NCBI GenBank assembly: GCA_030748535.1
Contig: JASMLU010000001.1
Coordinates: forward strand, 151,087 to 215,086
Length of the DNA: 64,000 bases
Source of the DNA: Candidatus Krumholzibacteriia bacterium
Lineage (GTDB): Bacteria; Krumholzibacteriota; Krumholzibacteriia; JACNKJ01
Direction of reading: 5' to 3'
In this document: positions 3,305 to 53,306 of the stretch, piece after piece
Layout of the letters: each line of letters starts with the position of its first letter
How positions within the stretch are numbered: position 1 is the first letter of the stretch
Made by a program: the position numbers and the translations under genes
The notes under the pieces: generated by a model
What the model was told of the DNA's origin: nothing
Database searches by the model: none
The model's input: the letters and a program-made list of their open reading frames with translations, nothing else

Positions 3305-3307
3305 GTC

Positions 3308-4996: not shown

Positions 4997-5043
4997 TTAT
5001 TTCTCTGGAAAATCCCCCCTTCTTGACCTAAGTTCCTTCCGTT

Positions 5044-5117: not shown

Positions 5118-5123
5118 CCTCTT

Positions 5124-5297
5124 ATGAAAATTCTACTCACATTGCTGCTCGCTTTGGTGGCCTGGAAATGGCTGCTCTCGCCGCTTCTATTCTTGAGGCC
5201 TTCCCGGCAGAAGAAAGCGGAACCACCTTCGGCCTCTTTTGAGGGGGAGAAGGTCAAGGATGCGGACTTTGAGGATCTCTCCGGAGGGGACGAGTGA
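5124..5297 (+). CDS. small membrane protein (one N-terminal TM, acidic C-terminus)
   Basis: ATG 6 nt after the tRNA 3' end. MKILLTLLLALVAWKWLL TM segment, then a charged tail ending DADFEDLSGGDE. The ORF-track N-terminus (5085) overlaps the tRNA and was trimmed. Confidence 0.4.
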   Translation: MKILLTLLLALVAWKWLLSPLLFLRPSRQKKAEPPSASFEGEKVKDADFEDLSGGDE

Positions 5298-5578
5298 GCG
5301 GTTCCCGTTTTCGCCCCGGTTTTCGTTTCCGAAGTTCCGAAGGCAATCAGGAAGAGAAATGGGGCTACTGGATTCAGTGGATTCTCCTTGCCGTTCTGGT
5401 TCTTGCTCTTTTTGCCCTTTTCCTCTCCTCAATACACTTGCTTCGAGCACATTTGCTGGAGAAATATGGCTTCCGGGCCTGGATCTTACCCGTTATCATC
5501 TTCCTGATTGATCTCCTGATGCTCTTTCGTCTCTTTCGCCTTTCCAGGACAAAAGAGGAGGCACAGGATGGGAAGTAG
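5294..5578 (+). CDS. small membrane protein (two predicted TM segments)
   Basis: GTG start overlapping the previous stop (GTGA). Two long hydrophobic stretches. No family recognised. Confidence 0.4.
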   Translation: MSGSRFRPGFRFRSSEGNQEEKWGYWIQWILLAVLVLALFALFLSSIHLLRAHLLEKYGFRAWILPVIIFLIDLLMLFRLFRLSRTKEEAQDGK

Positions 5579-5595
5579 TTTCAAGAGAGGTTTGA

Positions 5596-6900: not shown

Positions 6901-6907
6901 GAGTCGC

Positions 6908-7846: not shown

Positions 7847-7858
7847 GAGGGAGGAAGA

Positions 7859-9274
7859 ATGTCACCGTCTCCCATTCTGATTCTCGACAATCAGGAACCG
7901 GTGCGCCTGCTTCTGACAAAGAGCCTTGAAGGCGCAGGACATTCTGTCACGGCCCTTCCCTTTCCTGAAGATCTTGGGAACTTGCTTCAGGAACACAGCC
8001 CTTCTCTCCTTGTCCTGGAAGATACGGAACTGAAAAGGCCTCTGTCCGACCTGAATGACTTCCTGAGACTGAATCACGAGAGACTTCCCTACATCCTGAT
8101 AAGCTCTGCTCCGGAGATTTCCCGAGCCATTGAGGCAATTCGGGGAGGAGCCTGCGACTACCTCCCGAAGCCTATTGACATGCCCCAGCTCCTGAAGAAA
8201 GTAAGCTCGGCGCTGGAGTCCCGGAAAAAGGAATCGGCTCTTCTGGATAGGCGCAGGCAATTCAAAACCGGAAAAGGTCTGACTTTCTATAAGCTGAAAA
8301 GCCCGGCAATGGAGCGGGTCTACGATCAGGCCTCACAGGTGGCGATGAGCCCCGATACAACAGTTTTGATTTCAGGAGAGAGTGGAACGGGGAAGGAAAT
8401 CATCGCCCGGCTGATTCATGACCTCAGTCCTCGCCATGAGCGAGAATTTATGGAACTGAATTGTGCTTCGATCCCTTCAGAACTTCTTGAGAGCGAACTT
8501 TTTGGTCATGAGGCGGGTGCTTTCACCGATGCCAGGGAGAGTAAGAAGGGACTTTTCGAGATTGCCAACGGGGGGAGCATCTTCCTGGATGAAATTGGTG
8601 AGATGAGTCTGAACCTCCAGGTTAAACTTCTTCGGTTCCTGGAGCTTCGTTCCTTTCGCCGGGTGGGAGGGACGAAGGACATTGAGGTTAATGTCCGGAT
8701 AATTTCTGCGACCAATCAGGACCTCAAGGAAAGGGTGGAGGAAAAACGCTTCCGCTCTGACCTTTATTACCGACTCAATGTTATCCCGATTAGTCTCCTT
8801 CCCCTTCGGGAAAGAAAAGAGGACATTCTTCCCCTCTTCCGTTTCTTCCTCATGGACTTTATGAAGAGATACAATCGGGACCCCCGGGACCTCGATGAGG
8901 TGTCTTCCCGCATCCTCCTGGAGTACGCTTGGCCGGGAAATGTGCGGGAACTTCGAAACGTTGTCGAGCGCCTTATTCTGATGGAAGGGGACCAGGCTCT
9001 GGACGCAGAGACCTTGCGATCCAGCTTGGGGCAGGATCTTGCCAGGGGAGATGAGTCGATGGACCAACGCTGGGCCAGGATTCTCGGTAATCCCCTGCCA
9101 GAGGACGGAGTTCCCCTGGAGGATCTTCTCCTGCAGTTGGAGACCGTCATGATTCTGAAGGCTCTCGATGAGACGAATGGGAACCAGTCCCGGGCCGCCC
9201 GTCTTCTAAAATTGGATCGCGACAAACTGCGCTACCGGATGAAGACCCAGAACATCCAGAAGGTAAAATCTTGA
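7859..9274 (+). CDS. sigma-54-dependent response regulator (NtrC/Fis family enhancer-binding protein)
   Basis: REC-like N-terminus, AAA+ GESGTGKE, ESELFGHEAGAFTDA (GAFTGA variant), C-terminal Fis-type HTH (NQSRAARLLKLDRDKLRYRM). Confidence 0.85.
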   Translation: MSPSPILILDNQEPVRLLLTKSLEGAGHSVTALPFPEDLGNLLQEHSPSLLVLEDTELKRPLSDLNDFLRLNHERLPYILISSAPEISRAIEAIRGGACDYLPKPIDMPQLLKKVSSALESRKKESALLDRRRQFKTGKGLTFYKLKSPAMERVYDQASQVAMSPDTTVLISGESGTGKEIIARLIHDLSPRHEREFMELNCASIPSELLESELFGHEAGAFTDARESKKGLFEIANGGSIFLDEIGEMSLNLQVKLLRFLELRSFRRVGGTKDIEVNVRIISATNQDLKERVEEKRFRSDLYYRLNVIPISLLPLRERKEDILPLFRFFLMDFMKRYNRDPRDLDEVSSRILLEYAWPGNVRELRNVVERLILMEGDQALDAETLRSSLGQDLARGDESMDQRWARILGNPLPEDGVPLEDLLLQLETVMILKALDETNGNQSRAARLLKLDRDKLRYRMKTQNIQKVKS

Positions 9275-9774
9275 AAAATGGGATCCTGATATTGACGCTC
9301 TTTCTTCTGGCCTGTGCGAATTACAGCAGCACTACGCGGGGACGGGGAGTCCGGGGAGATCTGGACCTTCCTCTCTTTGTCAATGAGACGGATCAGGCGG
9401 GCCTTGGCATCGAACTCACAGAGCTGTTGCTGGAGGAAATTGAAAGGGACGGACTTCTTCATAAGGTCCCCGAAGAGGGAGACCCTCTCTTCCGGCTTGA
9501 TGTCATCCTTGAATCCTATGAAGAGAAGGCGGCCTTTACCGGAGAGATGGGGGCCGCCGAGGAATACACTTTGGAGATTCAACTCAAGCTTACGCTCAGC
9601 ACCCTTCGAGATCCTCACGAGGAAGAGGAAGGTCGGGAGGATTTCAGTAAGTCGATCAGGGCAAGGGAAACATTCTACCTGGAAGGCGAAGGCTTCAGTC
9701 GTGATGATGCTCTCGAAAACGCAAAGGAGCAACTGGTCGACGACATCCTGCTTGCGATCTTCGGAGACTGGTAA
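9271..9774 (+). CDS. lptE: LptE-like outer-membrane lipoprotein
   Basis: Lipobox LFLLAC after a signal peptide; ~165 aa. Sits immediately upstream of holA as in the E. coli lptE-holA pair. TTG start overlaps the upstream stop (TTGA). The call rests largely on synteny. Confidence 0.5.
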   Translation: MKNGILILTLFLLACANYSSTTRGRGVRGDLDLPLFVNETDQAGLGIELTELLLEEIERDGLLHKVPEEGDPLFRLDVILESYEEKAAFTGEMGAAEEYTLEIQLKLTLSTLRDPHEEEEGREDFSKSIRARETFYLEGEGFSRDDALENAKEQLVDDILLAIFGDW

Positions 9775-10811
9775 TGGCCAGGTCCCGACCTTCTAGCCCC
9801 CTGGAGACTCTTCGAGCTGACCTGAAAGCTACCCTCCGTCCCGTCTACCTCTTTCATGGACCGGAGCAGTTTCTCATTCAGGAAGCAGTGTCTCTTCTCC
9901 GGGAGACCCTTGCTGCCGGAGACATGGCCTGTGAGTTCAAGAGTGACACTCTTGGCGCCAAGAGCCGCTGGTCAGACATTGAACCCCTGCTGATCAATTT
10001 CTCCATGTTCAATGAGAGAGAGATCCTGCATCTGGACATTCCGGGAAAGTTGTCAAAGGACTTTCGGGACTCTCTGAGCGGCTATCTGGAATCTGATCCC
10101 GGGAGCAAGGTGATCTGCCTGACAGCTCCCAGCCTTGATCAGTTAAGAGCGGTGAAAAACCGGGTGGAAAAGCTGAAGGGGATGACTCTTTCCTTTCAGG
10201 AACTGAAAGGGGAGGCGCTCCTTGCCTGGATCCGTTCATCACTTGCCGTGAAAAACGTCTCCTGCGCACGGGATGTTCCCGCAACCCTGCTTGCACTCCT
10301 TCCTCATGGTCTGTCTGCTCTGTCGGGAGAGATAGAAAAGCTCGCCCTGATTGCCAGGGAGGGCGAAGCGCTGGACAGAGACACGGTGGAGAGGATCGTG
10401 GGAGGGAAAGCGGACCTGAATGTCTTTCGACTTGTGGACGCTCTTCGTCCTGGGAACGATGCGGAATTCCTCCGCATTCTGGGGGAGTTCCTCGATTCAG
10501 GGGCACACAAACCCGTCTCCCTTCTGCCTCTGCTGGGGACAACCGTTCGTAATCTCCTCAAGGCCCGGATTCTTCTGGATTCAAATTCCAACTCTCCGGC
10601 AAGCGTGGAAAAACAGATGGGTTTGCATCCTTACCTTGCGAAGAAGACAGTGGCAAGGGCCCAGAGGGGGAGTCGGTCTCTCTTCTTGTCCTGGCTCCTG
10701 AACCTGCAGAAACTGGATGTCCGTCTGAAAAGAAGTCCCGAAGATCGTTCCCGAATCCTCATGGAGACCTACCTTCTGGAGTCTCTCTCCGGCAGATTCC
10801 TTTCCTCCTGA
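9774..10811 (+). CDS. holA: DNA polymerase III delta subunit
   Basis: PVYLFHGPEQFL N-terminus and LSGEIEKLAL / VFRLVDAL blocks typical of HolA. TAATG junction with the lptE-like gene. Confidence 0.75.
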   Translation: MARSRPSSPLETLRADLKATLRPVYLFHGPEQFLIQEAVSLLRETLAAGDMACEFKSDTLGAKSRWSDIEPLLINFSMFNEREILHLDIPGKLSKDFRDSLSGYLESDPGSKVICLTAPSLDQLRAVKNRVEKLKGMTLSFQELKGEALLAWIRSSLAVKNVSCARDVPATLLALLPHGLSALSGEIEKLALIAREGEALDRDTVERIVGGKADLNVFRLVDALRPGNDAEFLRILGEFLDSGAHKPVSLLPLLGTTVRNLLKARILLDSNSNSPASVEKQMGLHPYLAKKTVARAQRGSRSLFLSWLLNLQKLDVRLKRSPEDRSRILMETYLLESLSGRFLSS

Positions 10812-10813
10812 GC

Positions 10814-10843
10814 TTGCACGCCGACTCAAGCCCTGAGTATATT
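10814..10843 (+). promoter_or_regulatory. sigma70-type promoter TTGCAC-N18-TATATT
   Basis: Hexamers read directly. Followed by GGAGG 5 nt before ATG 10864. Confidence 0.45.
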
Positions 10844-10863
10844 CCCCCTCATTGGAGGACAAC

Positions 10864-11496
10864 ATGCGACGTCTCTGTTTACTGTTTGCGATTGCTCTGC
10901 TCCCTGCCTTCTCCCTGCTTGCCGCAGAGACGGAGGGAGAGGAGAAGGATCCACGTTGGCTGGCCGGACATGAATACCGTCAATGGGTTTATGACCAGAA
11001 CTTTATCGGCGACCAGAATTCCAATCTGGACCCGGGGATTGATTTCATTGAGGAAGGTAAGATTCGCATCCACTCCGGCCGAGTCTACTTCTATGACAAT
11101 CTGGATCTGGCGATGCAATTGGGCCGCGAAACGGGATTCCCGATTGCCTTCTATATCTTTGACCACCAGTGCCAGACCTGCCTCTACCGTCTCGGGGAAC
11201 TGTATTTCGATCCCACGATTGTTGCCAAGAGTCGTAAGTTCATCAATGTCTATGTCGAAGTGCCCAAGATGCGGCCACGCCTGAGTAAACTCGGAATCTC
11301 AAACTCGAATCTGACCGTGCAGTTCTTCCTTCCGGGAATGCGTCGGCTGCGGGTCCTCGATGATGCCGAGAAAGAGAACCTCAGTCATACATACGATCTG
11401 ATCTTTGAGAAATATCACTCTCTGAGTCCTGAGGAGAGGATGAAGCCCCCTCGTCCCCCCAAGCAGTTTCGAATGAGCCCCAATCAGTATCGATAA
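10864..11496 (+). CDS. secreted thioredoxin-fold protein (CxxC)
   Basis: Signal peptide MRRLCLLFAIALLPAFSLLAA. FYIFDHQCQTC with downstream FINVYVEV resembles the thioredoxin_7/DUF255 layout. Start chosen at the ATG with a GGAGG SD. Confidence 0.5.
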   Translation: MRRLCLLFAIALLPAFSLLAAETEGEEKDPRWLAGHEYRQWVYDQNFIGDQNSNLDPGIDFIEEGKIRIHSGRVYFYDNLDLAMQLGRETGFPIAFYIFDHQCQTCLYRLGELYFDPTIVAKSRKFINVYVEVPKMRPRLSKLGISNSNLTVQFFLPGMRRLRVLDDAEKENLSHTYDLIFEKYHSLSPEERMKPPRPPKQFRMSPNQYR

Positions 11497-11527
11497 GAAA
11501 ACCCCGGCAAGCGCCGGGGTTTCTTTT
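11497..11527. terminator. bidirectional intrinsic terminator between convergent genes
   Basis: GAAAA-CCCCGGC-aagc-GCCGGGG-TTTCTTTT. A-run and T-run flank a 7-bp GC stem. Confidence 0.75.
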
Positions 11528-13040
11528 AAAACTGAAGTCTGCTGGCAAGGTCAGGTGGTAGCCGAAGGGGAGAGTAGCGGGATGCTTGCAAGGGAACCTC
11601 GGGCAGGGAAGGGTGCTGCAAGTTGGAGCCGTAGGTTTCATTGATCTTGTCAATGAAGTACCCGGCAATCACGGCCTGTCCGATATTGGAAGGATGAACT
11701 CCATCCAAACTAAAGAGGCCTCCTGTTACAAAGTCAGTCGTATAGTGCTTTCCATTGTAGTCCAGCCCATCGACAGACACTTCCGAGAACAGGGCGTTCA
11801 TATCCACAAGGGGAATGCCGAAAGCTCCCGCCAGGGAGGCAATGACGGCATTATATGCGTCCGTTGCCGCAAGAATCGCAACCTTCTCTGACTCCACCAG
11901 CGTCAGGTTTCCCGGGAGGAGTTGCCCATGAAGGGGGAAGGGGCTGTTCTCGGGATCGTTGAGTACTGCAGTCGCAGTGGCCTCATCCATTCCCATGCTC
12001 TCCATCAGAAGGGCAATCAGAATCGCATCGGGGATTCCCATTCCCTCGGAAATGTAGGAACTGGCAGACAGGCAAACCAGGTCGCTGGGCACAAGCTGGT
12101 AGGCAGTGTCGGCGGCATCCTCGGCGAGAAGGCCAATGGGAAATCCCGTGTCCGGGTCATAGACCGGATTCATATCCGGGTCAACGATCAGCCAGGGGAT
12201 GGCGGTGAAGAAGGGGATGGAAGTGACATAGGGCAGATTCGCCACAATCATGTCCAGATCCGGCAAGGCGGTCTTCAGATCATTCAGGATACTCCAGTAA
12301 ATGGCCTCCATGCTGAGGCCGTCTCCCGTTGCCGGATAGAAGGCATCCCCTGAGCCGTTTGTCGCCGGCATCAGGAGTTCATTGTTCCCGATCCAGAGGC
12401 TCAAAAAGGTGGGGGAGGCGAGAATGGTCTGCTCCACAACCGAGAGGTAGTCCTCGTCCTGCCCAAGAGCCGTCCAGAGTCCAGTCCCGTTGCGAAGCAC
12501 CGAGTCAAAATAGGAATTGGGTTCGCCCAGAAATGACCCGGTAAAACAGTCCGTGGAAATCGTGGCAAAGTAGAGGTCATAGGCCGTGGACCCGGGAATC
12601 CCGAGGTTGTGGTAGGGGGCCAGAAGACCCGCGTTGAGAAGGAACTGGGCGGGGTCGGATACTCCCTCCGGCCAGGGCGTGGGAGCAATAGAAGCATTGC
12701 CTTCCTCATCAAAGACCAGTTGCAGATGGCCGACTCCGGGCAGCCCTTCCACTTCCGTTGAATAGATACCCGGATCCATCATCCAGGGCATCTCAAAGGA
12801 AGTAACTCCCATGCTTTGGGAAAGAAGCCGGGCATAGCCATACTGCTGCGTGCTTTCATACAGGGCACCGCTCTGGTATCCGGCCGTCAGGCTATTTCCA
12901 AGAGTGACATAGACGGAAAAGTCTGCCGTTCCTGAATCCACTTCCTCCGGCAGGATCTCCTCTTCCACTGGTGCAAAGACGGAGCAACCGAGAGAGAGGA
13001 GAAAGAGGGCCGCAGTAAAGAGAGCAAGAATCCGTTTCAT
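11526..13040 (-). CDS. SGNH/GDSL-family hydrolase lipoprotein (putative lipase/esterase)
   Basis: Lipobox LSLGC. Block I GNSLTAG near the N-terminus and block V DGVHPS near the C-terminus. Confidence 0.6.
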   Translation of the reverse strand: MKRILALFTAALFLLSLGCSVFAPVEEEILPEEVDSGTADFSVYVTLGNSLTAGYQSGALYESTQQYGYARLLSQSMGVTSFEMPWMMDPGIYSTEVEGLPGVGHLQLVFDEEGNASIAPTPWPEGVSDPAQFLLNAGLLAPYHNLGIPGSTAYDLYFATISTDCFTGSFLGEPNSYFDSVLRNGTGLWTALGQDEDYLSVVEQTILASPTFLSLWIGNNELLMPATNGSGDAFYPATGDGLSMEAIYWSILNDLKTALPDLDMIVANLPYVTSIPFFTAIPWLIVDPDMNPVYDPDTGFPIGLLAEDAADTAYQLVPSDLVCLSASSYISEGMGIPDAILIALLMESMGMDEATATAVLNDPENSPFPLHGQLLPGNLTLVESEKVAILAATDAYNAVIASLAGAFGIPLVDMNALFSEVSVDGLDYNGKHYTTDFVTGGLFSLDGVHPSNIGQAVIAGYFIDKINETYGSNLQHPSLPEVPLQASRYSPLRLPPDLASRLQF

Positions 13041-13048
13041 TTCGCCTC

Positions 13049-14296
13049 CTAGAAGTGGTAGCTAAGGCCGATGCCCAGCAGGTTTGAGAACGTGCGATAA
13101 TTGCCGTTGAAGCCATCATGGTTGTCGCGAACTTCCCTCTCGTCCGCAAAGACCATGAGATTATAGAAGTCGAGGTCGAGGTTCTTGCCGAAATGGTAGC
13201 CATATCCAAGAGACCAGACCGTGCGATCCGAGTCCGGTAGAACCGGTCCGCAACTTGCCGAAGGCTGGGGACTGAAGTCCCTGGCAAAACCCGCCCTTAG
13301 CTCAAGGCAGCGATTGTACTGGTAAGCAAGACCAAAGCGGTACTGGCTGGAGTCTTCGTAATCCTCCGGAAGGAGCTTGTTGTTTTCAGGGCTGTCGGGG
13401 AAAACAAGATTCAGGCTCTCAAAAGCAGACCAGAAAACCCGGTTGTAGTTGAACTCAAAGCGAAGATCCGGCCGAAGCTGGCTTGAAATGCCCAAGGAAT
13501 AGAGAGCGGGTAAAGGAATGGCTGTCTCCGCGCCTCCGTCCACGGGAAGAACCCCTTCGAAACCGGGATAGGCAGTAAAGTCCGCTTCGCCCGTGAAGTC
13601 GAGTTGGATTTCACTCTTGTAATTGAAGCCCAGCTGAATGTTCTCACAGTAGTCGTAGAGCAAACCGAAATTGAAACCGTAGCTCAGGTCACTGCTTCCC
13701 GTAATGGTGGCCGTTCCGACATCCGTTGCATTGGGGATGTTCTCTACAAGGCCCTGTTCCAGGTGCACGCTTCCCTTTACCAGATTCACGCCCGCTCCAA
13801 GAGAGAGAGCATCCGTGAGCTTCCAGGCCAGCGTGGGGCTGAAGAAGTAGGTCTTCAGGTCCGTGAAAGTCGAGATGGAGCGCCCCGAGAAGCTCTCGGG
13901 ATTCTCCCATTCGACTGCAAGACCATAGGGGGTGTAAAATCCCAGCCCGAAGGCGAGATCCTTCCCCAGAGAGCGGGAATAATAGGCCTGTGGCAGAAGG
14001 AAGAAATGATCGGCGAGCCTTTCCGTAACCCCGAAGCCGGGATTGGGAGCCACTCCGCTGAACTCTGTTTTCGGGCTGATTCCGGTCAGGTCCAAGCTGA
14101 AATTACTTCCCTCAAGGCCTGCAAGGCCCGCGGGATTGAAGAAGATCGCCGTAGGGTCGTCCGCGCTGGCCGTCATGGTTCCCCCAAGAGCGGAACTCTT
14201 CGTTCCCATCTCCCAGACAGCAAAACCTGCCGCCCAGGCACTGAGAGGGAGGGCCAGAAGCGCAAGGATGGTGAAAGTTCTGAGTGTTGATTTCAT
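13049..14296 (-). CDS. fadL: FadL/TodX-family outer-membrane hydrophobic-compound transporter
   Basis: Signal peptide ending SAWA. DDPTAIFFNPAGL N-terminal hatch motif, alternating beta-strand pattern, C-terminal aromatic residue (YHF). Confidence 0.8.
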   Translation of the reverse strand: MKSTLRTFTILALLALPLSAWAAGFAVWEMGTKSSALGGTMTASADDPTAIFFNPAGLAGLEGSNFSLDLTGISPKTEFSGVAPNPGFGVTERLADHFFLLPQAYYSRSLGKDLAFGLGFYTPYGLAVEWENPESFSGRSISTFTDLKTYFFSPTLAWKLTDALSLGAGVNLVKGSVHLEQGLVENIPNATDVGTATITGSSDLSYGFNFGLLYDYCENIQLGFNYKSEIQLDFTGEADFTAYPGFEGVLPVDGGAETAIPLPALYSLGISSQLRPDLRFEFNYNRVFWSAFESLNLVFPDSPENNKLLPEDYEDSSQYRFGLAYQYNRCLELRAGFARDFSPQPSASCGPVLPDSDRTVWSLGYGYHFGKNLDLDFYNLMVFADEREVRDNHDGFNGNYRTFSNLLGIGLSYHF

Positions 14297-14324
14297 GACA
14301 CCTCTTTCTTGCCGATTCGATGCT

Positions 14325-16166
14325 TTATGAACGGGACTCTTCGTAGAGAGAGTCGATAATTTCCTGATACGATGCTTCCACCCGGTTTCTCTTGACCTTG
14401 AGAGTGGGGGTCAGTTCCCCGCCTTCCAGACTCAACTCATGGTCCAGGATGGCGAACTTCTTGATCTGTTCAAAGGAGGAGAGTCTCTCATTGAATTCGT
14501 CTACCCGGTCCTGATACATCTGCCGGATCAGCGGCTCAGCCACCAGACCCGCCTGAGAAGTGAAGAGAATCTCATTTTCCCTGGCATACTTGAGCAGGTT
14601 TTCGTAGTTCGGAACCAGGAGAGCGGTGACGTAACTCCGGCGATCACCAATGAGGACACACTCAGAAATGAACTTGTCCGTTTTGAACTTGTTTTCAATC
14701 GGCTGGGGGGCAATGTTCTTGCCGCCGGCCGTAACGATCAGGTCCTTCTTGCGATCCGTAATCTTCAGGAAACCGTCTTTATCAAACTCGCCAATGTCTC
14801 CCGTGGCAAACCATCCATCCGGGCTGATAGACTCTCTCGTTGCCTCTTCATTCCGGTAATAGCCCTTCATGACATTGGGACCACGCGTGAGGATTTCCCC
14901 GTCATCGGCGATCTTCACCTCAATTCCCGGGAGCGTCTTGCCGACAGTCCCCAGCCTCATATCATGAAGGAAGTTCGCGGAAATGACCGGGCTGGTTTCC
15001 GTAAGACCGTAGCCTTCCAGAATGGGGAGCCCGGCAGCATAGAAAAACTTGGCGATGTCAGCGTTCAAGGGCGCGCCTCCGGACACAAAGAAACGCAGAC
15101 TGCCGCCTGTCTTGGTCTGGAGCTTCGAGAAGACCAGCTTCGCAGCGATCTTGTAGAAGAACCGCAGGCCTCCGGAGACCGCCTTCTTTTCGATATCCAA
15201 CTCCGCCCAGCGTTCGCCGGTGCGCTTCGCCCAGAAAAAGAGGTTCTTCTTGATCGAGCTGCCCGAGAGAGCGGTGTCGAGAATCCTTGCGTACATCTTC
15301 TCATAGAGGCGGGGTACGGAAATCATGATGGTGGGATGAACTTCCAGCAGATTCTGCGGAACGGTCTCAATGGACTCCGCATAGGCAATCGAAGCTCCCG
15401 CATCCAGCATGAAGTAATAGCCGGCCATCCGCTCAAAGATATGACTGAGAGGCAGGAAAGAAAGCGAGACATCCGATGAATCGCATTCAATCAGACTCTT
15501 GGAGGCGTTGATATTGCTCACGATGTTTCCGTGAGTCAGCATGACACCCTTGGGATCACCGGTGGTTCCCGAGGTGTAGATGAAACTGCAAACCTGATCA
15601 GCTTCCACAGAGAGAGCCAGTTCCTCGAAAGCGTCTTTCTGGTCCTCATACTGAGCTTCTCCCAGGCTCAAGAGATCCTGAAAACTCATCACACCCGGCT
15701 CAGTTGACTCGCCGTCCATCAGGACGATTTCCTTCAGATCCTCCAGGTTGTGTCGAATTTGGAGGATTTTCTCGACTTGCTCCTGGGTGGAACAAAGGAC
15801 GAACTTGGCTCCCGAGTTCTGAAGAATGTAGAGGATTTGCTCGGGCAAAAGAGTCGGGTAAATCGGAACATTGACTGCTGCAGAAAGCAGGATTCCAAAG
15901 TCGCTGACAGCCCATTCCAAACGATTTTCAGCGAGCAGAGCGGCGCGATCTCCGGGGCGGAGTCCCAACTTCTGCAGGGCAAGAGCCGCATAAGAGGCCA
16001 TCGTCCCGAATTCGACAGAGGAAACGGCTTGGTACTTCCCGGCGACTTTTCTCTGAAAAGCACGAGGATTCTGAATCTCCCGAACGTTTTTGAAGAAGAT
16101 ATCATTGAGAGTACGAATCTCCACGCGGGGCCTCCTTAGTACGGGTGCTGCGCCTTCGAAGCGCAT
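14325..16166 (-). CDS. fadD: long-chain fatty-acid--CoA ligase (AMP-forming)
   Basis: AMP-binding signature YTSGTTGDPKGV; also GEILTRGPNVMKGYY, TGDIG, KNIAPQPIE. Confidence 0.9.
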   Translation of the reverse strand: MRFEGAAPVLRRPRVEIRTLNDIFFKNVREIQNPRAFQRKVAGKYQAVSSVEFGTMASYAALALQKLGLRPGDRAALLAENRLEWAVSDFGILLSAAVNVPIYPTLLPEQILYILQNSGAKFVLCSTQEQVEKILQIRHNLEDLKEIVLMDGESTEPGVMSFQDLLSLGEAQYEDQKDAFEELALSVEADQVCSFIYTSGTTGDPKGVMLTHGNIVSNINASKSLIECDSSDVSLSFLPLSHIFERMAGYYFMLDAGASIAYAESIETVPQNLLEVHPTIMISVPRLYEKMYARILDTALSGSSIKKNLFFWAKRTGERWAELDIEKKAVSGGLRFFYKIAAKLVFSKLQTKTGGSLRFFVSGGAPLNADIAKFFYAAGLPILEGYGLTETSPVISANFLHDMRLGTVGKTLPGIEVKIADDGEILTRGPNVMKGYYRNEEATRESISPDGWFATGDIGEFDKDGFLKITDRKKDLIVTAGGKNIAPQPIENKFKTDKFISECVLIGDRRSYVTALLVPNYENLLKYARENEILFTSQAGLVAEPLIRQMYQDRVDEFNERLSSFEQIKKFAILDHELSLEGGELTPTLKVKRNRVEASYQEIIDSLYEESRS

Positions 16167-16167
16167 T

Positions 16168-16195
16168 GGTTAACATAATATACATTATGCGTCAT
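16168..16195 (-). other. dif: dif site (XerC/XerD chromosome-dimer resolution site)
   Basis: The minus strand reads ATGACGCATAA-TGTATA-TTATGTTAACC. E. coli dif is GGTGCGCATAA-TGTATA-TTATGTTAAAT. That is 22/28 identical by hand alignment, with the central hexamer 6/6. Confidence 0.8.
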
Positions 16196-16593
16196 TCCGG
16201 GCTTCCCCCCTTGAAGGTGGGTGGCTCCGGGATTCTCTCCGCATAATTGCCGATCCAGGGAAGCGGCGTGAGTTCTCCTGTCAAAGCCTTGGCAACTCCC
16301 AGCACTGCCAGAGCCAGAACAGGAAGCCAGAGGACCAGTCTCAGAAGAATCAGAAGCAGTAGGCCCAGAAACGGGATCTTCCCGATGCTGGCATCGAGAA
16401 CAGCGATCAGAATCCAGGCCAGGATTTCCAGCAGAAAGAGGAAGAGTCCCTGCTGTGCATGGAAGCGAACATGCTTGCTCTCCCCCGCCCGGAAATAGGG
16501 CAAGAGACAGAGAAATGGCAGATAGGAAAGAGCAGAGTACCAGTAGGTATTGGAGTCTGCTCGATCTGGCCCGGAAGATGTGGGCGTGTTCAC
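16192..16593 (-). CDS. DUF4870-like small membrane protein
   Basis: HAQQGLFLFLLE motif and 3 hydrophobic segments. Start reassigned to GTG 16593 (GAAGGGGA SD), because the ORF-track TTG at 16650 is the -35 hexamer of a promoter. Confidence 0.5.
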   Translation of the reverse strand: MNTPTSSGPDRADSNTYWYSALSYLPFLCLLPYFRAGESKHVRFHAQQGLFLFLLEILAWILIAVLDASIGKIPFLGLLLLILLRLVLWLPVLALAVLGVAKALTGELTPLPWIGNYAERIPEPPTFKGGSPE

Positions 16594-16621
16594 GGGATCC
16601 CCTTCTGATGGCTGAAAGGTT

Positions 16622-16650
16622 AGTAGAGCAAGTCGTCCGGGGAAAGTCAA
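16622..16650 (-). promoter_or_regulatory. sigma70-type promoter TTGACT-N17-TCTACT with cTTGC upstream of the -10
   Basis: Read on the minus strand. Lies immediately after the terminator of the upstream gene. Confidence 0.4.
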
Positions 16651-16651
16651 C

Positions 16652-16690
16652 GCAAAGAAAAGCCCCCGAAATCCCTGCCGGACTCGGGGG
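16652..16690 (-). terminator. intrinsic terminator after the TPR gene
   Basis: Minus strand: CCCCCGA ... TCGGGGG stem followed by CTTTTCTTTG. Confidence 0.55.
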
Positions 16691-16706
16691 GTAAATGCAG
16701 GGATTC

Positions 16707-17399
16707 TCAGGGGTTCAGGACGGCAAGAGCCTCCAGATCCCTTTGTACATCAAGAAGGAGCTTTCCCTTTGCCTTCTCCTTCAGGGAGGACAGGATGTCA
16801 CCGGCAAGATCAAAGTAGCGGGAATCAAGATAGATCTTACTGGCCTTGTAAGCTGTCAGAAGGGACAGCTCTTCCCAGGCTCGCGGATGCTCAGAAATCT
16901 CAAGGTAGAGGTCCGCAGCTTTCTTGGGATTTCTCAGGCTATGCTCACAGGAGGCAATTCCCTGAAGGGCTGCCAGTTCGAATTCTCCCTCGGGCTCAGC
17001 ACTCAGATAGGCTGAATAGTCGCCCCGGGCCTCTTCAAACTGCTGGAGGCGTTCCTTGCAAAAGCCCGAGTAATAGAGAGTCCAGGCCCCTACCGTCCTT
17101 TTCGGGTATTCAGCTCCTACTGCCTCAAAACCGGCCAAGGCCTGTTGAAAGGCCTCCTCTGTATTGCTATCCAGAGCCAATTCAAGATTACCGAGAGCTG
17201 AAGCGAAGGACTGCCGGGATTCCAGTTCCGATTCCTTCGCAAAACGGAAAGACAGACTGACGGCAGCAATCACGATGAGAATCATCGTAAGAGAGGCAAT
17301 CACGCTCTTCTTGTGCGCCATAAACAGCGCTGCATAGTGCCCGGCCCGATCGACGAAGGCATCTTCCCTCACATGGCGGCCGCTCTTCTGAGATACCAA
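16707..17399 (-). CDS. membrane-anchored TPR-like protein (YfgM-like architecture)
   Basis: Single TM (VIASLTMILIVIAAVSL) followed by a helical-repeat region. Start set at TTG 17399, 6 nt after GGGAGG. ATG 17321 is an alternative. The ORF-track start 17471 lies upstream of the predicted promoter. Confidence 0.45.
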   Translation of the reverse strand: MVSQKSGRHVREDAFVDRAGHYAALFMAHKKSVIASLTMILIVIAAVSLSFRFAKESELESRQSFASALGNLELALDSNTEEAFQQALAGFEAVGAEYPKRTVGAWTLYYSGFCKERLQQFEEARGDYSAYLSAEPEGEFELAALQGIASCEHSLRNPKKAADLYLEISEHPRAWEELSLLTAYKASKIYLDSRYFDLAGDILSSLKEKAKGKLLLDVQRDLEALAVLNP

Positions 17400-17433
17400 G
17401 GCAATCCTCCCGGAAAGTGAAATTGTGAGAAAG

Positions 17434-17462
17434 AACTTAACATTTGCCTCCCTGACCGGCAA
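17434..17462 (-). promoter_or_regulatory. sigma70-type promoter TTGCCG-N17-TAAGTT with extended -10 (TGt)
   Basis: Read on the minus strand upstream of the TPR gene. Confidence 0.45.
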
Positions 17463-17516
17463 GTCCCTCAAGCTTCAGATTGACAGGAAGGAAAAAGGAA
17501 AGGAAAGTCAGGTATC

Positions 17517-19982
17517 ATGATTGGAACCCGCCATTTGCTTCGGAAGGCGAAGAAGTCCTTCCCCTACTTCCTGCTCCTGATGGCTCTCCTCTTGAGTCTC
17601 GCCGGATTGTATGACCGTTGGGAGACCCCCTATCCCACTTTCAGAATTCATAATCTCAGGATCTACACCTCTCAGCCTATCCCAGGAGGTCTAAGAGGCA
17701 AGGATCTACTGCTGGCCGTGAATGGCGAGATTGTTCACCGGGATCAGCAGGCCATGAGTCTTGTCTCGAAACTCAAGGGCGAGGAAGGTGTCCTGAAGGT
17801 TCTCCGTGAGGGGCAGGAAGTTCTGGTCCCCTACTCCGCCCCTTTTCCCGGACTTGGAATCCGCTCTGCTTCCAGCCTGAGGGTTCTCGCGTCTCTCTTC
17901 ATTCTGCTTGCGGCCGCCTTTGTCTACAAGAAACGGCAAGACCCGCTGGCCCTGCTGTTCTTGCTTCTCTGTTTTCTTCTTGCATCACTCCTTTCTCCCC
18001 ATCCGCGATTTGAGGCGTCCTTCCCCGGCTTGCTTCTGGAATTGGGCAACGATCTTCTTTCCCTTTTCTTTGCTCCCCTGTTTCTGCATTTCCTGATTCT
18101 CTTTCCGGAGAGCAGGCCACGCTCCCTGGGGATCCGACTGCTGATCTATCTCCCTTCTTTCCTTTTTGCCGTGATGGACGCGGCGATTCTTTTCGCCTTC
18201 ATGCCCTGGTCGGGGCTAATGGAATATCTCGAAATTCTGGCCAGCCTTCATTCGGTTCTTCTCCTGCTTCTTGCCCTGCTTGTTCTTCTGATAAAAGTCT
18301 TCCGCAGAAGCCGCAGGAGGGAGAGGTACCGTCTGCGCCTTGTCCTCTCGGGGGCGGCTCTGGGGCTTTTCCCTCTGCTGATTTTCCAGATCCTGCAGAT
18401 GGTGATCCCCCAGGAGATCCTCGCAGCTTCGCGCTGGGCTCCTGTCTTTCTTGTCTTCCTCCCTCTCAGCTTCGCCTATGGAATGTTGGGAAAGGATTTA
18501 CTGTCACTTAGACAGTCTGCTCTCACCTTGAGCAGGAGTATCCTCCGTAGCCTGTTCTTCATTGGACTCTTTCTACTTCTTCATGGCCTATTTCTCTCCT
18601 TGTCAGAGGGAGATTTCGGAGGACTTGGCTCTTTCCTCGGCTCCGGCCTGGTGCTGGCTCTTTCTCTCGTTCTCTGGGCACCCGTTCAGGGTGTCTTTCC
18701 GGGGAAGGGTAAGAAGAGACCGGAAGACGAGCTTCTCCAGTCCTACCCGATCCTGTCCGGAAGGATCCTCAGCTCCAGCCTTTCCGAACTTCAGGAGGCT
18801 CTCTCCGCTGCCTTGATGGAGGATCTGGGTGCTTCCTGGGTAGATTGGTATTCTCTGGAAGAGGGAAAGTGGAATCCGGATTTCACTCTCCTGCATGTGG
18901 AGGTGGAGTCTGAGGAAGCGAAGCCTCAGGTGCTTCCCGATCAGTTGGCCCAGACTCTGGCATCCGGCCAGTGTTTGCTTGCTGCCGACCTCTGGGACCC
19001 CTACTGGGCCTCCGCACATCTGGGAAAGGAAGGGCTGGAGTTTTGCAGGAAACACGATTGGTCCATCCTGCTCTCCTTCCCCCAAAAGGACTCCGTTTCC
19101 CGTCTGATTGTCCTTGGGCCGCAACTCCGGCACTCCCTCCACTCCCCCGAGTTGCTAAGCAGATTTCAGAGCCTTATGCCTTCCCTGTCTCTTCAACTGG
19201 GAAACCTCTCCCTTCTTGATCGTCTGGCGAAAGAGAAACAGATTGAGCATGAGCTGAGACTGGCGCGGCAGATCCAACAGAGTCTGATTCCCTCCACTCC
19301 TCCCGAGAGGAAAGGCCTTGAACTACTGGGCAAGATGATTCCCAGTGGTGAGGTGGGCGGAGACTATTTCGATTTTCTGGAAACTGCCGATGGCCACCTG
19401 GGCCTTGCTCTTGGCGACGCTACAGGGAAGGGAATCCCGGCGGCTCTGCTCATGGCAGGAGTTGCCCAGACCTTTCACAGCCAGGCCTTTGCCATGCGTT
19501 CACCCGCGGCGGTTCTTTCCGGAATGAACCAGTCCCTGATTGATGCCCGCTCCGACCCGGTATTCGAGGGCTTTTTCGTTGCCTTCTTCTTCGCTCTCTT
19601 CAATCAGGAGAAATCCGTACTCCGCTTTTGCAATGCGGGCATGCCCACTCCCTGGATTTTCCGCAAGAACGGGGAGATTGAGAGACTTCACCGGGGCGGT
19701 CCTTTTCTCGGGATTAGCAGCGACGGGAGCTTTCAGGAAGGACTTCTGCGTCTGGAAGCAGGAGATCTCCTCTTTCTGCGCTCCGACGGCTTCGAAGAAC
19801 AGGAAAACGAGGCGGGAGAACGCTTTGGCGAGGATCGCCTGCTGGAATGGGTAAAAAACCATCAGTCACTCCCCCTTTCTGACCTTTTTACGGAATTAAT
19901 TGCCACGATTGAAGACCATGCAGCTTCTGCTATCCGCGATGATATCTCCTTGATCCTCATGCGATTACGGGATTCCTGCTGA
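17517..19982 (+). CDS. membrane-bound PP2C (SpoIIE/RsbU-type) serine phosphatase with multi-TM sensor region
   Basis: N-terminal TM plus a PDZ-like stretch, ~8 hydrophobic segments. C-terminal GGDYFDF, GDATGKGIPAALLM, RSDGF, DDISLILMRL. Confidence 0.8.
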   Translation: MIGTRHLLRKAKKSFPYFLLLMALLLSLAGLYDRWETPYPTFRIHNLRIYTSQPIPGGLRGKDLLLAVNGEIVHRDQQAMSLVSKLKGEEGVLKVLREGQEVLVPYSAPFPGLGIRSASSLRVLASLFILLAAAFVYKKRQDPLALLFLLLCFLLASLLSPHPRFEASFPGLLLELGNDLLSLFFAPLFLHFLILFPESRPRSLGIRLLIYLPSFLFAVMDAAILFAFMPWSGLMEYLEILASLHSVLLLLLALLVLLIKVFRRSRRRERYRLRLVLSGAALGLFPLLIFQILQMVIPQEILAASRWAPVFLVFLPLSFAYGMLGKDLLSLRQSALTLSRSILRSLFFIGLFLLLHGLFLSLSEGDFGGLGSFLGSGLVLALSLVLWAPVQGVFPGKGKKRPEDELLQSYPILSGRILSSSLSELQEALSAALMEDLGASWVDWYSLEEGKWNPDFTLLHVEVESEEAKPQVLPDQLAQTLASGQCLLAADLWDPYWASAHLGKEGLEFCRKHDWSILLSFPQKDSVSRLIVLGPQLRHSLHSPELLSRFQSLMPSLSLQLGNLSLLDRLAKEKQIEHELRLARQIQQSLIPSTPPERKGLELLGKMIPSGEVGGDYFDFLETADGHLGLALGDATGKGIPAALLMAGVAQTFHSQAFAMRSPAAVLSGMNQSLIDARSDPVFEGFFVAFFFALFNQEKSVLRFCNAGMPTPWIFRKNGEIERLHRGGPFLGISSDGSFQEGLLRLEAGDLLFLRSDGFEEQENEAGERFGEDRLLEWVKNHQSLPLSDLFTELIATIEDHAASAIRDDISLILMRLRDSC

Positions 19983-20412: not shown

Positions 20413-20416
20413 CAGG

Positions 20417-20490
20417 TACCCCCGACAGGATTCGAACCTGTGGCACCCGGTTTAGGAAACCGGTGCTCTATCCACCTGAGCTACGGGGGC
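20417..20490 (-). tRNA. tRNA-Arg (anticodon CCT)
   Basis: Hand-folded cloverleaf: GCCCCCG acceptor, CCGGT/ACCGG anticodon stem, loop TTCCTAA, ACAGG TTCGAAT CCTGT T-arm. G1-U72 wobble. Begins 2 nt after the sigma-gene stop codon. Confidence 0.9.
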
Positions 20491-20492
20491 AA

Positions 20493-21308
20493 TCATGGAT
20501 CCACATCCTCTGAGGTAATCAGGAGCCTCAATTTCCTCAAGGCTCCCTTTTCAATCTGCCGGGCTCTTTCCCGGGTGATCCCAAAGGCCTGGCCCGTTAT
20601 CTCCAGAGTCTGAAAATCTCCGCCACTTTCAAATCCATAACGAATCCGCAGAATCGCTCTTTCCCGCTCCGACAGTTTTTCGAGCAGGCGATGAAGCTGC
20701 TCATGCTCCAACTGGAGGCTCACCAGTTCTTCCGGACTCTGGCTCGTCTGGTTCTTGCCCTCGGAGTAGAGTTCCCGAAACGCGCCCTGGCTCATCATGA
20801 GATCGAGAGACAGAATTCCGTGAACCAGATTCCTGACAAGATGCGCTTTGCGTTTCGAGCAATGGAGGCGCTTCGACAGAGCCTCGTCGTCTAGGCGAGT
20901 GTCCCCCTCCTCCTCAGCGCCCAGGCGCAGGAAGCGATTGACCAGTTGGAAGACATGGAATGGGATTCGAATCGTTCGCCCCTGATTGGATACGCAGCGT
21001 GCCATTGCCTGCTTCACCCAGTAGGAAGCATAGGTGGAGAAACGAAAGCCCCGTTCCGGGTCGAACTTTTCCACTGCCCGAATCAGTCCGAGATTCCCCT
21101 CTTCCACAATGTCCAGAAAAGGAACGCCCCGTCCTCGATAGGACCGGGCGATACTCACCACCAGTTTGAGATTTGCGAGGATCAGCTTTCGCTTGGCCTC
21201 AGCATCTCCACTCTGGACCCCCCTGCCGAGATCCCTCTCCTCCTCTGCGGACAAGAGAGGAAGGCCCGCAATTTCACGAATGTATCTGGACTCGTAATCC
21301 GTAGACAT
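20493..21308 (-). CDS. group-2 (RpoD/RpoS-like) sigma-70 family sigma factor
   Basis: Regions 1.2-4 with no region 1.1. Region 2.4 is YASYWVKQAMARCV; region 4.2 is GITRERARQIEKGALRKLR. GGAGG SD. Confidence 0.85.
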   Translation of the reverse strand: MSTDYESRYIREIAGLPLLSAEEERDLGRGVQSGDAEAKRKLILANLKLVVSIARSYRGRGVPFLDIVEEGNLGLIRAVEKFDPERGFRFSTYASYWVKQAMARCVSNQGRTIRIPFHVFQLVNRFLRLGAEEEGDTRLDDEALSKRLHCSKRKAHLVRNLVHGILSLDLMMSQGAFRELYSEGKNQTSQSPEELVSLQLEHEQLHRLLEKLSERERAILRIRYGFESGGDFQTLEITGQAFGITRERARQIEKGALRKLRLLITSEDVDP

Positions 21309-21327
21309 CGACCTCCAGAATCAAAGG

Positions 21328-21402
21328 TCGGGGCGAGAAGATTTGAACTTCCGACCTCCTGTTCCCGAAACAGGCGCGCTAACCGGGCTGCGCTACGCCC
21401 CG
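21328..21402 (-). tRNA. tRNA-Pro (anticodon CGG)
   Basis: CGGGGCG acceptor, CCTGT/ACAGG anticodon stem, loop TTCGGGA, GGAAG TTCAAAT CTTCT T-arm. 3' end lies 19 nt before the sigma ATG. Confidence 0.9.
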
Positions 21403-21412
21403 AATCCAGCCG

Positions 21413-21441
21413 AATGTAATGCATCATTCAGCCCTTGTAAA
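21413..21441 (-). promoter_or_regulatory. sigma70-type promoter TTTACA-N17-TACATT driving tRNA-Pro/sigma/tRNA-Arg
   Basis: The -10 ends 10 nt before the mature tRNA 5' end. Confidence 0.6.
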
Positions 21442-21446
21442 GAGCC

Positions 21447-21947
21447 CTAGATTTGGCGGATGAGGAAACTGAGTCCAAGAACTCCCTTGCAGACGAGTGT
21501 CACCACGCATCCAGCAATCAGAATTCCCAGAAATATCGCGGGGAAAGCCACCCTTCGTTTCACGCCGAAAAGATAGGCGGCCACACTTCCTGTCCAGGCT
21601 CCCGTCACTGGAAGAGGAATCGCGACAAAAAGAACCAGCCCGAGGATCTTGAACCTCTCAAGCAGGCGTCCCTTTCTGCGAGTTCTCGCAAAAAGCCAAT
21701 CAAAGAATCGGCGAAAGACCGGGAATCTGCCAAGCCATGCCTCCGCCGGTTCCAGAAACAGGAGAATGGGAATGACGGGAATTGCGTTGCCAATTACAGA
21801 GAAGAGGTAGGATTGCAACCAGGGCATCTTCTCAATAAACAGGGCATAGGGAATGGAGCCACGCAGTTCCAGAATCGGCAACATGGCAAAGAAAAGGACT
21901 TTCCAGGCGCCGGGCCAGTCACGGGTCAATTCGAGAAGAAGGTCCAT
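21447..21947 (-). CDS. small multidrug-export-like membrane protein (PF06695-like)
   Basis: LELRGSIPYAL motif, 4-5 hydrophobic segments. Start set at ATG 21947, sharing one base with the pcm stop (TGATG). Confidence 0.55.
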   Translation of the reverse strand: MDLLLELTRDWPGAWKVLFFAMLPILELRGSIPYALFIEKMPWLQSYLFSVIGNAIPVIPILLFLEPAEAWLGRFPVFRRFFDWLFARTRRKGRLLERFKILGLVLFVAIPLPVTGAWTGSVAAYLFGVKRRVAFPAIFLGILIAGCVVTLVCKGVLGLSFLIRQI

Positions 21948-22591
21948 CAGCTCCCCACAGTGCGAGCGAGCATGGGGACAAACTGACAATCCCCCAGTTC
22001 CTCCTGATAAGCTCGATTCCCTTCCCGCCGGACTCTCAATAGTCGCTGGCGCCCATCCTTCTCCAGGGGGAGAAGAAGTTGTGCACCGTCGGCAAGTTGG
22101 TTCAGAAGTGCCTCCGGAATCTGACGAGGGGCAGCGGTCAGGAGAATGCGGTCAAAGGGAGCATCTTCAATCCAGCCTTCATAACCGTCTCCAACCCTGG
22201 ACCGGATTTTTCCCTGCAGCCCCATGGCCGACCAATGGGACAAAGCATTACGATGAAGGGAAGCGATTCTCTCCACAGTCCAGACCTCTGCGCCAAGAAG
22301 GTGCAAGAGAGCCGCCTGATATCCGGAACCGGTACCGACTTCCAGCACCTTCATCCCCGCCTGAAGTTGAAGGGATTCCGTCATGAAAGCGACAACCTCC
22401 GGGTGAGAGAGCGTCTGGCCGGCGCCGATGGGGAGTGCATCTTCTCCGTAGGCACGAAGAGCAAGGGCTGATTCGGCAAAGATGTGGCGCGGAATCTCCC
22501 TCATGGCGGCCAGAACCGCCTCGGAAGCGAGCTTCCTGTCCCGGATTCTCTGGACCATCCGGTTTCTTGCTACCTGATACTCGCCATTCAT
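21947..22591 (-). CDS. pcm: protein-L-isoaspartate O-methyltransferase
   Basis: SAM motif VLEVGTGSGYQAA and the LSHPEVVAFM block; ~214 aa. Overlaps the surE stop by 4 nt. Confidence 0.88.
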   Translation of the reverse strand: MNGEYQVARNRMVQRIRDRKLASEAVLAAMREIPRHIFAESALALRAYGEDALPIGAGQTLSHPEVVAFMTESLQLQAGMKVLEVGTGSGYQAALLHLLGAEVWTVERIASLHRNALSHWSAMGLQGKIRSRVGDGYEGWIEDAPFDRILLTAAPRQIPEALLNQLADGAQLLLPLEKDGRQRLLRVRREGNRAYQEELGDCQFVPMLARTVGS

Positions 22592-23343
22592 GGAAGCTCC
22601 CGACTCCAGTTCTTCATCTGCGCAAGCCGCTCGTGGTTGGTTAAATCCAGAAGAAGCGGAGTGATGGAAATTTTCTTCTCCCGATGAACCGTGTAGAAGT
22701 CCGTGTACTTTTCATCTTCCCAGGTAGGCTCTTCCCCACCGATCCAGAAGTACTCCTTCTCGCGGGGATCCTTCTTTCTGATGATGACATCTCCGTAAAA
22801 GCGGCTTCCGAGGCGGGTCACTTCCACCCCCCTGACTTCATTCCAGGGAAGACTGGGGACATTGACGTTGAGAAGGGTGCCGGGGACGGTCAAGGACTCT
22901 GCTTCATTTCTTACCATTCGGGAAACATACTGCACGGCAGCCTCGAAGTTCGGTTCACGAAAACTGGTAACCGAGATCGCCATCGCAGGAATGCCGAGAA
23001 TCGCAGCTTCGATGGCGGCGGCAACCGTCCCCGAGTAGTGAACGTCCTCTCCCATGTTCGGCCCATGATTGATTCCTGAAATCACCAGATCCGGCGGATT
23101 GGATTCCATGACGCCATTGAATGCCATCAGAACCGAGTCGGCGGGAGTCCCCGAAACGCTGTACACCCGATCACTCAACTTGCGGCGACGCAGGATCGTC
23201 TCCAAAGTGAGACTGTGGCTGGTGGCGCTCTGCTCGGAAGCCGGGGCTACCACCCAAAGCTCGCAAAGAGACTCCAGTTCCGCCTGGAGCGCTCGAAGGC
23301 CCTGAGCATAAATGCCATCATCGTTCGTAAGAAGTACTCGCAT
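22588..23343 (-). CDS. surE: 5'/3'-nucleotidase SurE
   Basis: MRVLLTNDDGIYAQG N-terminus; SGINHGPNMG; ~251 aa. Confidence 0.9.
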   Translation of the reverse strand: MRVLLTNDDGIYAQGLRALQAELESLCELWVVAPASEQSATSHSLTLETILRRRKLSDRVYSVSGTPADSVLMAFNGVMESNPPDLVISGINHGPNMGEDVHYSGTVAAAIEAAILGIPAMAISVTSFREPNFEAAVQYVSRMVRNEAESLTVPGTLLNVNVPSLPWNEVRGVEVTRLGSRFYGDVIIRKKDPREKEYFWIGGEEPTWEDEKYTDFYTVHREKKISITPLLLDLTNHERLAQMKNWSRELP

Positions 23344-23349
23344 GCGGGC

Positions 23350-23378
23350 AATCTAGCAAAGGAGCAGTTTTGCGGACA
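23350..23378 (-). promoter_or_regulatory. candidate extended -10 promoter (TGTCCG-N17-tTTGC-TAGATT) giving a leaderless surE mRNA
   Basis: The -10 ends exactly 6 nt before the surE ATG. Weak -35. Confidence 0.35.
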
Positions 23379-23485
23379 GGGAAATCTGCAGGGCAATTGG
23401 ACAGGACGGCAGGATCCGGGAACTCAGGATCATGGTAAGCTCGGCGGCAAGTGTGACCAGGGCTACGCTGCACCCAAGGGATAAT

Positions 23486-23513
23486 GAAAAACCCCGCGAC
23501 TTTCGCCGCGGGG
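23486..23513 (-). terminator. intrinsic terminator after tRNA-Pro(GGG)
   Basis: Minus strand: CCCCGCG-gcgaaagt-CGCGGGG followed by TTTTT. Confidence 0.85.
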
Positions 23514-23516
23514 TGA

Positions 23517-23593
23517 TGGTCGGGGCGACTGGATTTGAACCAGCGACCACTTACCCCCCATGCAAGTGCGCTACCGGACTGCGCTACGCCCCG
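23517..23593 (-). tRNA. tRNA-Pro (anticodon GGG), CCA encoded
   Basis: CGGGGCG acceptor, loop ATGGGGG, GCTGG TTCAAAT CCAGT T-arm, 3' ACCA. Confidence 0.88.
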
Positions 23594-49714: not shown

Positions 49715-49730
49715 TCTCTCACCCTTTCAC

Positions 49731-53288: not shown

Positions 53289-53306
53289 CAGCGACTCCTT
53301 TTCCCG

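Follow-up and report, generated by a model that had tools for sequence, protein, structure and literature searches.

The 28 bases at 16168..16195 of the stretch of DNA analysed here (64 kb, referred to below as the window) resemble the E. coli dif site, and they lie just upstream of a fadD-like gene. The question raised by this locus is whether they represent the chromosomal dif of the organism or a palindromic element of another kind. Judged from its sequence and its surroundings, the site is very probably a classical XerC/XerD-type chromosomal dif of an uncultured marine, outer-membrane-bearing bacterium. This reading is based on identity to E. coli dif at 22 of 28 positions, on the GC skew and the convergence of genes, on a core conserved in relatives, and on XerC-like and XerD-like genes that encode full catalytic sets. 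A dif is an expected, normal feature here since such sites were predicted in 97.6% of single-chromosome strains (Kono et al. 2011; PMC3025954).

On the minus strand (16195..16168) the site has the sequence ATGACGCATAATGTATATTATGTTAACC (28 bases). It is laid out as 11 + 6 + 11, with two arms that form a partial inverted repeat around a 6-bp centre. By analogy with E. coli dif, ATGACGCATAA would be the XerC-binding arm and TTATGTTAACC the XerD-binding arm. E. coli dif, an experimentally defined site, was taken as printed in Kono et al. 2011 (GGTGCGCATAATGTATATTATGTTAAAT; PMC3025954). In a position-by-position scan the two sites were identical at 22 of 28 positions, namely the inner 7 of the XerC arm, the central 6 and the first 9 of the XerD arm; the initial annotation had reported a minus-strand, dif-like 28-mer with the same count and the same matched parts. 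The arms are palindromic over their inner 5 nt (CATAA/TTATG), a feature shared with E. coli dif, and the identity reaches past this palindrome into the asymmetric XerD arm (TTATGTTAA).

From the base composition of the window, 22 or more matches of 28 are expected by chance approximately 2e-4 times per window (both strands), and approximately 0.013 times in a 4-Mb genome. The runner-up in the window had 16 matches of 28, whether scored against E. coli dif or against the site itself, and no other 28-mer within the 64 kb matched at three or fewer mismatches. The site had been expected to be unique, and no several-copy pattern was seen in the window. The core was likewise present in exactly one copy per contig in three assemblies of the source species (L001-L003), in two related genomes (L007 and L008) and in 16 metagenome contigs. 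The site had also been described as hidden; standard pipelines do not annotate dif sites, and the word overstates the case. The coordinates of the site and of the other features are collected in Table 1.

Table 1. Features discussed in the text; positions are those of the window unless a contig is named.
Feature	Position	Strand	Remarks
Predicted dif site, 28 bp	16168..16195	-	22/28 to E. coli dif; unique in window
Putative XerC-binding arm ATGACGCATAA	16195-16185	-	arm named by analogy with E. coli dif
Central region TGTATA	16184-16179	-	identical to E. coli dif
Putative XerD-binding arm TTATGTTAACC	16178-16168	-	arm named by analogy with E. coli dif
Replication-terminus zone	12694..17841	.	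cumulative G-C maximum plateau, peak 16954
Acyl-CoA ligase gene, FadD-like, 599 aa	14325..16124	-	probable start GTG 16124; SD AAGGAGG 16137-16131
Hydrophobic 133-aa protein gene	16192..16593	-	GTG start 16593; called 133 aa in L001
XerD-like tyrosine recombinase, 315 aa	50519..51466	-	uvrC-xerD-scpA-scpB-rluB context
XerC-like tyrosine recombinase, 294 aa	56306..57190	-	topA-trmFO-xerC-pyrB context
Core in IMG/VR contig L049	13017-13039		
Core in IMG/VR contig L050	10690-10712		
Core in IMG/VR contig L051	1817-1839		
Core in IMG/VR contig L052	2656-2678		
Core in IMG/VR contig L053	1621-1643		

The fadD-like gene had been given a start at ATG 16166-16164, that of the longest ORF, which left an intergenic gap of 25 nt. 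This start is unlikely. An in-frame GTG (16124-16122) sits behind the AAGGAGG box and corresponds exactly, when aligned, to the ATG at which the orthologues of L007, L008 and the metagenome contig L032 begin, and the region upstream of it is not conserved. The GTG is most likely the start of fadD, and public gene calls for the gene disagree (599 aa in one, 613 aa in others). With the GTG start the gap is approximately 67 nt rather than 25 nt; the site occupies its upstream edge, with 43 nt between it and the probable start of fadD. On the other side of the gap, the TGA of the upstream gene (16194-16192) lies inside the XerC arm as had been noted, where it overlaps the four outer, poorly constrained bases. 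In relatives the corresponding stop lies approximately 20 nt before the site, and the overlap is thus incidental to the source species. The label "DUF4870-like" was not reproduced for the encoded 133-aa protein, which had no Pfam match at E<=0.01 and no NCBIfam match. The protein is conserved in L008 and L032. Its longest-ORF version (152 aa) found no match in public assemblies, since the gene most plausibly begins at the internal GTG, which yields 133 aa. A scan of positions 15900-16800 for promoters and terminators found nothing at the site.

Cumulative GC skew was calculated over the window (64 kb) and over the window plus a 7.5-kb left extension taken from public contigs of the same organism (71.6 kb), and the maximum given here is a local one. 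It was found at 16954, 0.8 kb off the site, within a plateau that extends from 12.7 to 17.8 kb, and its position was unmoved by adding the extension. The skew was +0.036 to the left of the site (z = 4.1, including the 7.5-kb extension) and -0.045 to the right (z = -7.3). To the left of 11.3 kb genes and tRNAs lie on the plus strand, and from 20.4 kb rightward nearly all of them lie on the minus strand, so that transcription converges on this zone from both sides, as expected at a terminus. Between these limits the skew was +0.026 at 11.5-16.2 kb despite genes on the minus strand, and -0.041 at 16.2-20 kb despite what is mostly a gene on the plus strand. In genes that face replication, the skew tracks the direction of replication and not the gene strand. 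The skew extremum that the initial annotation had looked for within a few kb of 16.2 kb was thus located, and its placing of the site in a strand-polarity switch zone agrees with the change of both skew and gene strand there.

The DNA of the window is chromosomal and not that of a plasmid. It encodes SecA, TopA-TrmFO-XerC-PyrB, UvrC-XerD-ScpA-ScpB-RluB, HolA, LptE, Dxs and NadK, together with a RecN-like protein, SurE-Pcm, a sigma factor and five tRNAs, and the left extension carries infC-rpmI-rplT-pheST-zapB-zapA. The assignment to the chromosome follows from these housekeeping genes (secA, topA, uvrC, scpAB, holA, lptE, dxs, recN, pheST) and from the tRNAs; a plasmid had been named beforehand as the finding that would change the interpretation of the site.

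Both Xer recombinases had been claimed to be encoded in the window, and both were found at the positions given (Table 1). For the XerD-like protein the top model was TIGR02225 XerD with 312 bits, below the equivalog cut-off of 329.6; the protein passed the tyrosine-recombinase subfamily model NF001399 (308 > 279). In its alignment to E. coli XerD (structure 1A0P, E=2.8e-57), the catalytic R, K, HxxR, H and Y are in register. The top model for the XerC-like protein was TIGR02224 XerC with 302.8 bits, which is also below the equivalog cut-off (335.15), and its motifs were GIRLSE, GKGNRER, HVLRHSFATHL and GHASLSSTQVYTH. The catalytic R-K-H-R-H-Y set is complete in both paralogs. The two proteins share 37% identity, the usual distance between XerC and XerD paralogs. 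Against the XerS model they scored 95-106 bits with a cut-off of 267. The topA-trmFO-xerC and xerD-scpA-scpB contexts are common for genuine xerC and xerD genes outside Enterobacteria. No ftsK was present among the window genes scanned.

The xerD and xerC genes are 5 kb apart and 34-41 kb from the predicted dif (window 48183-60734). Other segregation-related genes are also near, with the RecN-like gene at 3308-4996 and, just beyond the left end of the window, zapB-zapA (L046 4265-4823). This clustering of chromosome-segregation genes around the terminus is unusually dense and could be a coincidence.

The window was scanned for polar motifs known from other bacteria. E. coli KOPS (GGGNAGGG) occurred 14 times toward the site and 10 times away from it and was not polarised; B. 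subtilis SRS (GAGAAGGG) at 6:2 and L. lactis GAAGAAG at 27:33 were not convincingly polarised either. A de novo k-mer scan identified TGGGGGA (often as GTGGGGGAG), which points toward the site with a ratio of 28:2 for the window alone and 30:2 once the extension is added. Its plus-strand copies are located at 165, 1777, 4627, 6059, 10480 and 12410 and its minus-strand copies from 18412 to 54467, the exceptions being minus-strand copies at 6883 and 14186. The orientation flips between 12.4 and 18.4 kb. The best interval for the flip is 12.4-14.1 kb with 31 of 32 copies concordant, versus 30 of 32 at the site, which sets the resolution at a few kb. This distribution supports the location of the site at a polarity switch. 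A polarised oligomer inverting at the site had been anticipated, and TGGGGGA inverts to within a few kb of it; E. coli KOPS, with its 14:10 distribution, does not.

The same 7-mer was polar in relatives. TGGGGGA emerged independently as the top polar 7-mer of L008 (11:0), with eight plus-strand copies to the left and three minus-strand copies to the right of dif (1696-18849), and was found at 3:0 in L032 (6047-7544). Within genes that face replication, 10 of 11 copies follow the polarity of dif and not the strand of the gene (one-sided binomial ~0.006); these copies are in a SpoIIE-domain gene and GDSL/FadL genes of the window and in the corresponding genes of L008 and L032, and those in the SpoIIE gene occupy offsets that are not orthologous. 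An effect of gene orientation on the polarity of TGGGGGA is thereby only partly excluded.

TGGGGGA is G-rich, is skewed toward dif (skew 0.94) and inverts within a few kb, in all of which it resembles KOPS, SRS and the L. lactis GAAGAAG motif (PMC3384302). It differs from them in sequence, and at approximately 1 per 2.2 kb it is far more frequent than known KOPS, which occur at approximately 1 per 10-16 kb (PMC3384302). TGGGGGA may be put forward, tentatively and with considerable doubt, as the FtsK-orienting, KOPS-type motif of this lineage, unlike GGGNAGGG, GAGAAGGG and GAAGAAG. More broadly it is a candidate for a KOPS-like or an architecture-imparting motif.

Other k-mers were skewed as well. 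AACCGGA was perfectly polar, with 18:0 over the window plus extension, 4:0 for L008 and 3:0 for L032, its copies in the window lying at 347, 1427, 6608 and 8266 on the plus strand and from 22564 to 55524 on the minus strand; it has no copy in genes that face replication, and a coding-strand effect is possible. Most of the top skewed k-mers of the window, such as TCTGGA, TTCTGGA and CTGGAG, were set aside as probable coding-strand effects, and several of them (TCTGGAG, TGGAACT, GATTCTG) were not replicated in L008 or L032.

Related loci were sought with the FadD protein in species-representative genomes, a search that is independent of the site. It returned L007 (NIOZ-UU57) and L008 (a 263-kb contig), whose FadD proteins are 69-71% identical to that of the window, 71% being the best match in the scan; more distant homologues (43-50%) belonged to Omnitrophota, Desulfuromonadales and Planctomycetia MAGs. 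Both L007 and L008 carry the 23-nt core CGCATAATGTATATTATGTTAAC at the same position upstream of fadD. The core columns are invariant at 23 of 23 positions and the flanks at 23 of 77 and 18 of 70 (26-30%), in an alignment that also took in L032, which was found through the pattern and is not independent. The outer XerC arm is free to vary (ATGA vs TTGT). A fixed XerD arm, centre and inner XerC arm combined with a free outer XerC arm is the pattern of dif families. The gene neighbourhood is the same in the related species, without insertion, and the flanks of the site are identical in L001-L003, which are independent assemblies of the same species. Over 21.8 kb the skew profile of L008, a stretch too short for significance, peaks at 8-10 kb, in agreement with its dif at 9.93 kb.

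A metagenome scan with TGNCGCATAATGTATATTATGTTAAC returned 16 contigs (L028-L043) with one site each. Their flanks are mostly unrelated to the dif locus of the window, the GC content ranges from approximately 35 to 72% among the longer contigs measured, and most of the longer contigs have positive skew to the left of the site and negative skew to the right. Sixteen contigs with one site each and mostly unrelated flanks fit a single site per chromosome in many lineages. The variant xTGxCGCATAATGTATATTATGTTAACx occurs once per contig in L028-L043, so that very different genomes have nearly identical cores.

The same 23-nt core was also found in five IMG/VR "viral" contigs (Table 1), four of which have identical flanks. 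In L051 the site is approximately 170 nt upstream of the genes for the small and large terminase subunits and of head genes. A context of this type could represent a prophage or a gene-transfer-agent-like cluster beside, or integrated at, the dif of a host.

Several properties of the locus would also suit a palindromic operator or promoter of a fadD-fadL lipid-uptake operon, whose likeness to dif would then be due to chance or to AT-rich palindromes: the site precedes the probable start of fadD by 43 nt, its place there is conserved in three or four related genomes, and it contains -10-like hexamers such as CATAAT. The core, however, recurs in the 16 metagenome contigs with mostly unrelated flanks and without a fadD context, the match to E. 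coli dif extends beyond the palindrome to include the asymmetric XerD arm, the site is at the skew maximum, and the scan of 15900-16800 detected no sigma-70-like promoter at it. The chance that the site is an operator or promoter of this kind is considered very small. A somewhat different explanation would make it the attL or attR end of a Xer-integrated element (IMEX), or a decoy pseudo-dif, with the working dif elsewhere, either near or distant. Such elements duplicate dif-like sites at the terminus, and the core is present in the five IMG/VR contigs; on the other hand, the window has no second dif-like site (next best 16 of 28), the flanks are identical in L001-L003, and synteny with related species is uninterrupted. 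This explanation is improbable, and we allow it a slight chance.

Sites of the cer and psi type share the XerC/XerD-binding core of dif and resolve multimers of plasmids or other secondary replicons, relying on accessory proteins instead of FtsK; the initial annotation had named such a site as the alternative. These sites are plasmid-borne and FtsK-independent, with accessory sequences of approximately 180 bp that are served by PepA together with ArgR or ArcA, and the centre of cer is 8 bp. Neither the plasmid location, nor the accessory sequence, nor the 8-bp centre applies here. The surrounding genes are chromosomal (secA, topA, uvrC, scpAB, holA, lptE, pheST, rplT and five tRNAs), the 6-bp central region is that of chromosomal dif, and on the XerC-arm side, the place of the accessory sequence in cer and psi, the site is abutted or overlapped by coding sequence. 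The likelihood of a cer- or psi-type site is close to negligible.

As a chromosomal dif, the site would act when an odd number of crossovers between replicated sister chromosomes has produced a dimer. FtsK would pump DNA toward dif, steered by polar motifs, and the two dif copies would synapse at the division septum, with XerC bound to the left arm (ATGACGCATAA) and XerD to the right arm (TTATGTTAACC) of both. FtsK would activate XerD, as it does in E. coli, and strand exchange across the 6-bp TGTATA would then restore two monomers. Recombination at the site and its dependence on FtsK are what we infer from the analogy with E. coli.

With the E. coli dif/XerC-XerD/FtsK system the locus shares the 28-bp layout of 11 + 6 + 11, the TGTATA centre, the inner XerC arm CGCATAA, nine of eleven XerD-arm bases, a position at the GC-skew shift point and two paralogous Xer recombinases with complete catalytic residues. 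It differs in the four outer bases of the XerC arm and the last two of the XerD arm. In addition, polarity is shown here by the G-rich TGGGGGA and not by GGGNAGGG, the FtsK guide of E. coli, xerC and xerD are 34-41 kb from dif in the topA-trmFO-xerC and xerD-scpAB contexts, and ScpAB is encoded, which implies SMC rather than MukBEF. The single-recombinase systems difSL/XerS, difH/XerH and archaeal dif/XerA have the same purpose at the terminus, but use one recombinase that is usually encoded beside a divergent site, whereas two paralogs and a classical-type site are present here. Computational predictions of dif were reportedly also made by Carnoy and Roten in 2009.

The predictions of Kono et al. 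2011 cover 715 chromosomes of 641 strains in 16 phyla (PMC3025954) and, like the present site, are linked to the skew shift point. The present site lies within the range of sequences already known: matches to these predictions reached 25 of 28, for example to Alteromonas macleodii (ATTACGCATAATGTATATTATGTTAAAT), and Thermodesulfovibrio matched at 23 of 28. The exact core CGCATAATGTATATTATGTTAAC had no match in the Kono et al. 2011 table, the variant feature being the ending TTAAC after CGCATAATGTATA. In contrast to the hosts of that set, the present one belongs to an uncultured lineage known only from metagenome-assembled genomes.

The predicted dif marks where replication ends in a fragmentary genome assembled from metagenome data, which is of use for scaffolding and replichore assignment, and placing the terminus also helps growth-rate estimates from the peak-to-trough coverage ratio. 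It would extend a classical XerCD/dif system with a nearly gammaproteobacterial core to a lineage represented by MAGs alone. The conserved core, recurring at GC contents of approximately 35-72%, provides a handy probe for termini in metagenomes, and TGGGGGA is a concrete candidate for the FtsK-guide motif of the group. If TGGGGGA does guide FtsK, then xerC, xerD, scpAB, recN, zapAB (on the L046 extension) and topA would together with dif form an unusually compact segregation neighbourhood within approximately 45 kb. The current understanding of dimer resolution is unchanged by these results, which describe no new kind of system.

To the right of the terminus zone, a cluster of surE, pcm, a small ORF and a gene for a sigma-70-family factor (20415-23593, minus strand) is interleaved with tRNA-Pro and tRNA-Arg. 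We take this cluster to resemble the surE-pcm-nlpD-rpoS arrangement of Gammaproteobacteria.
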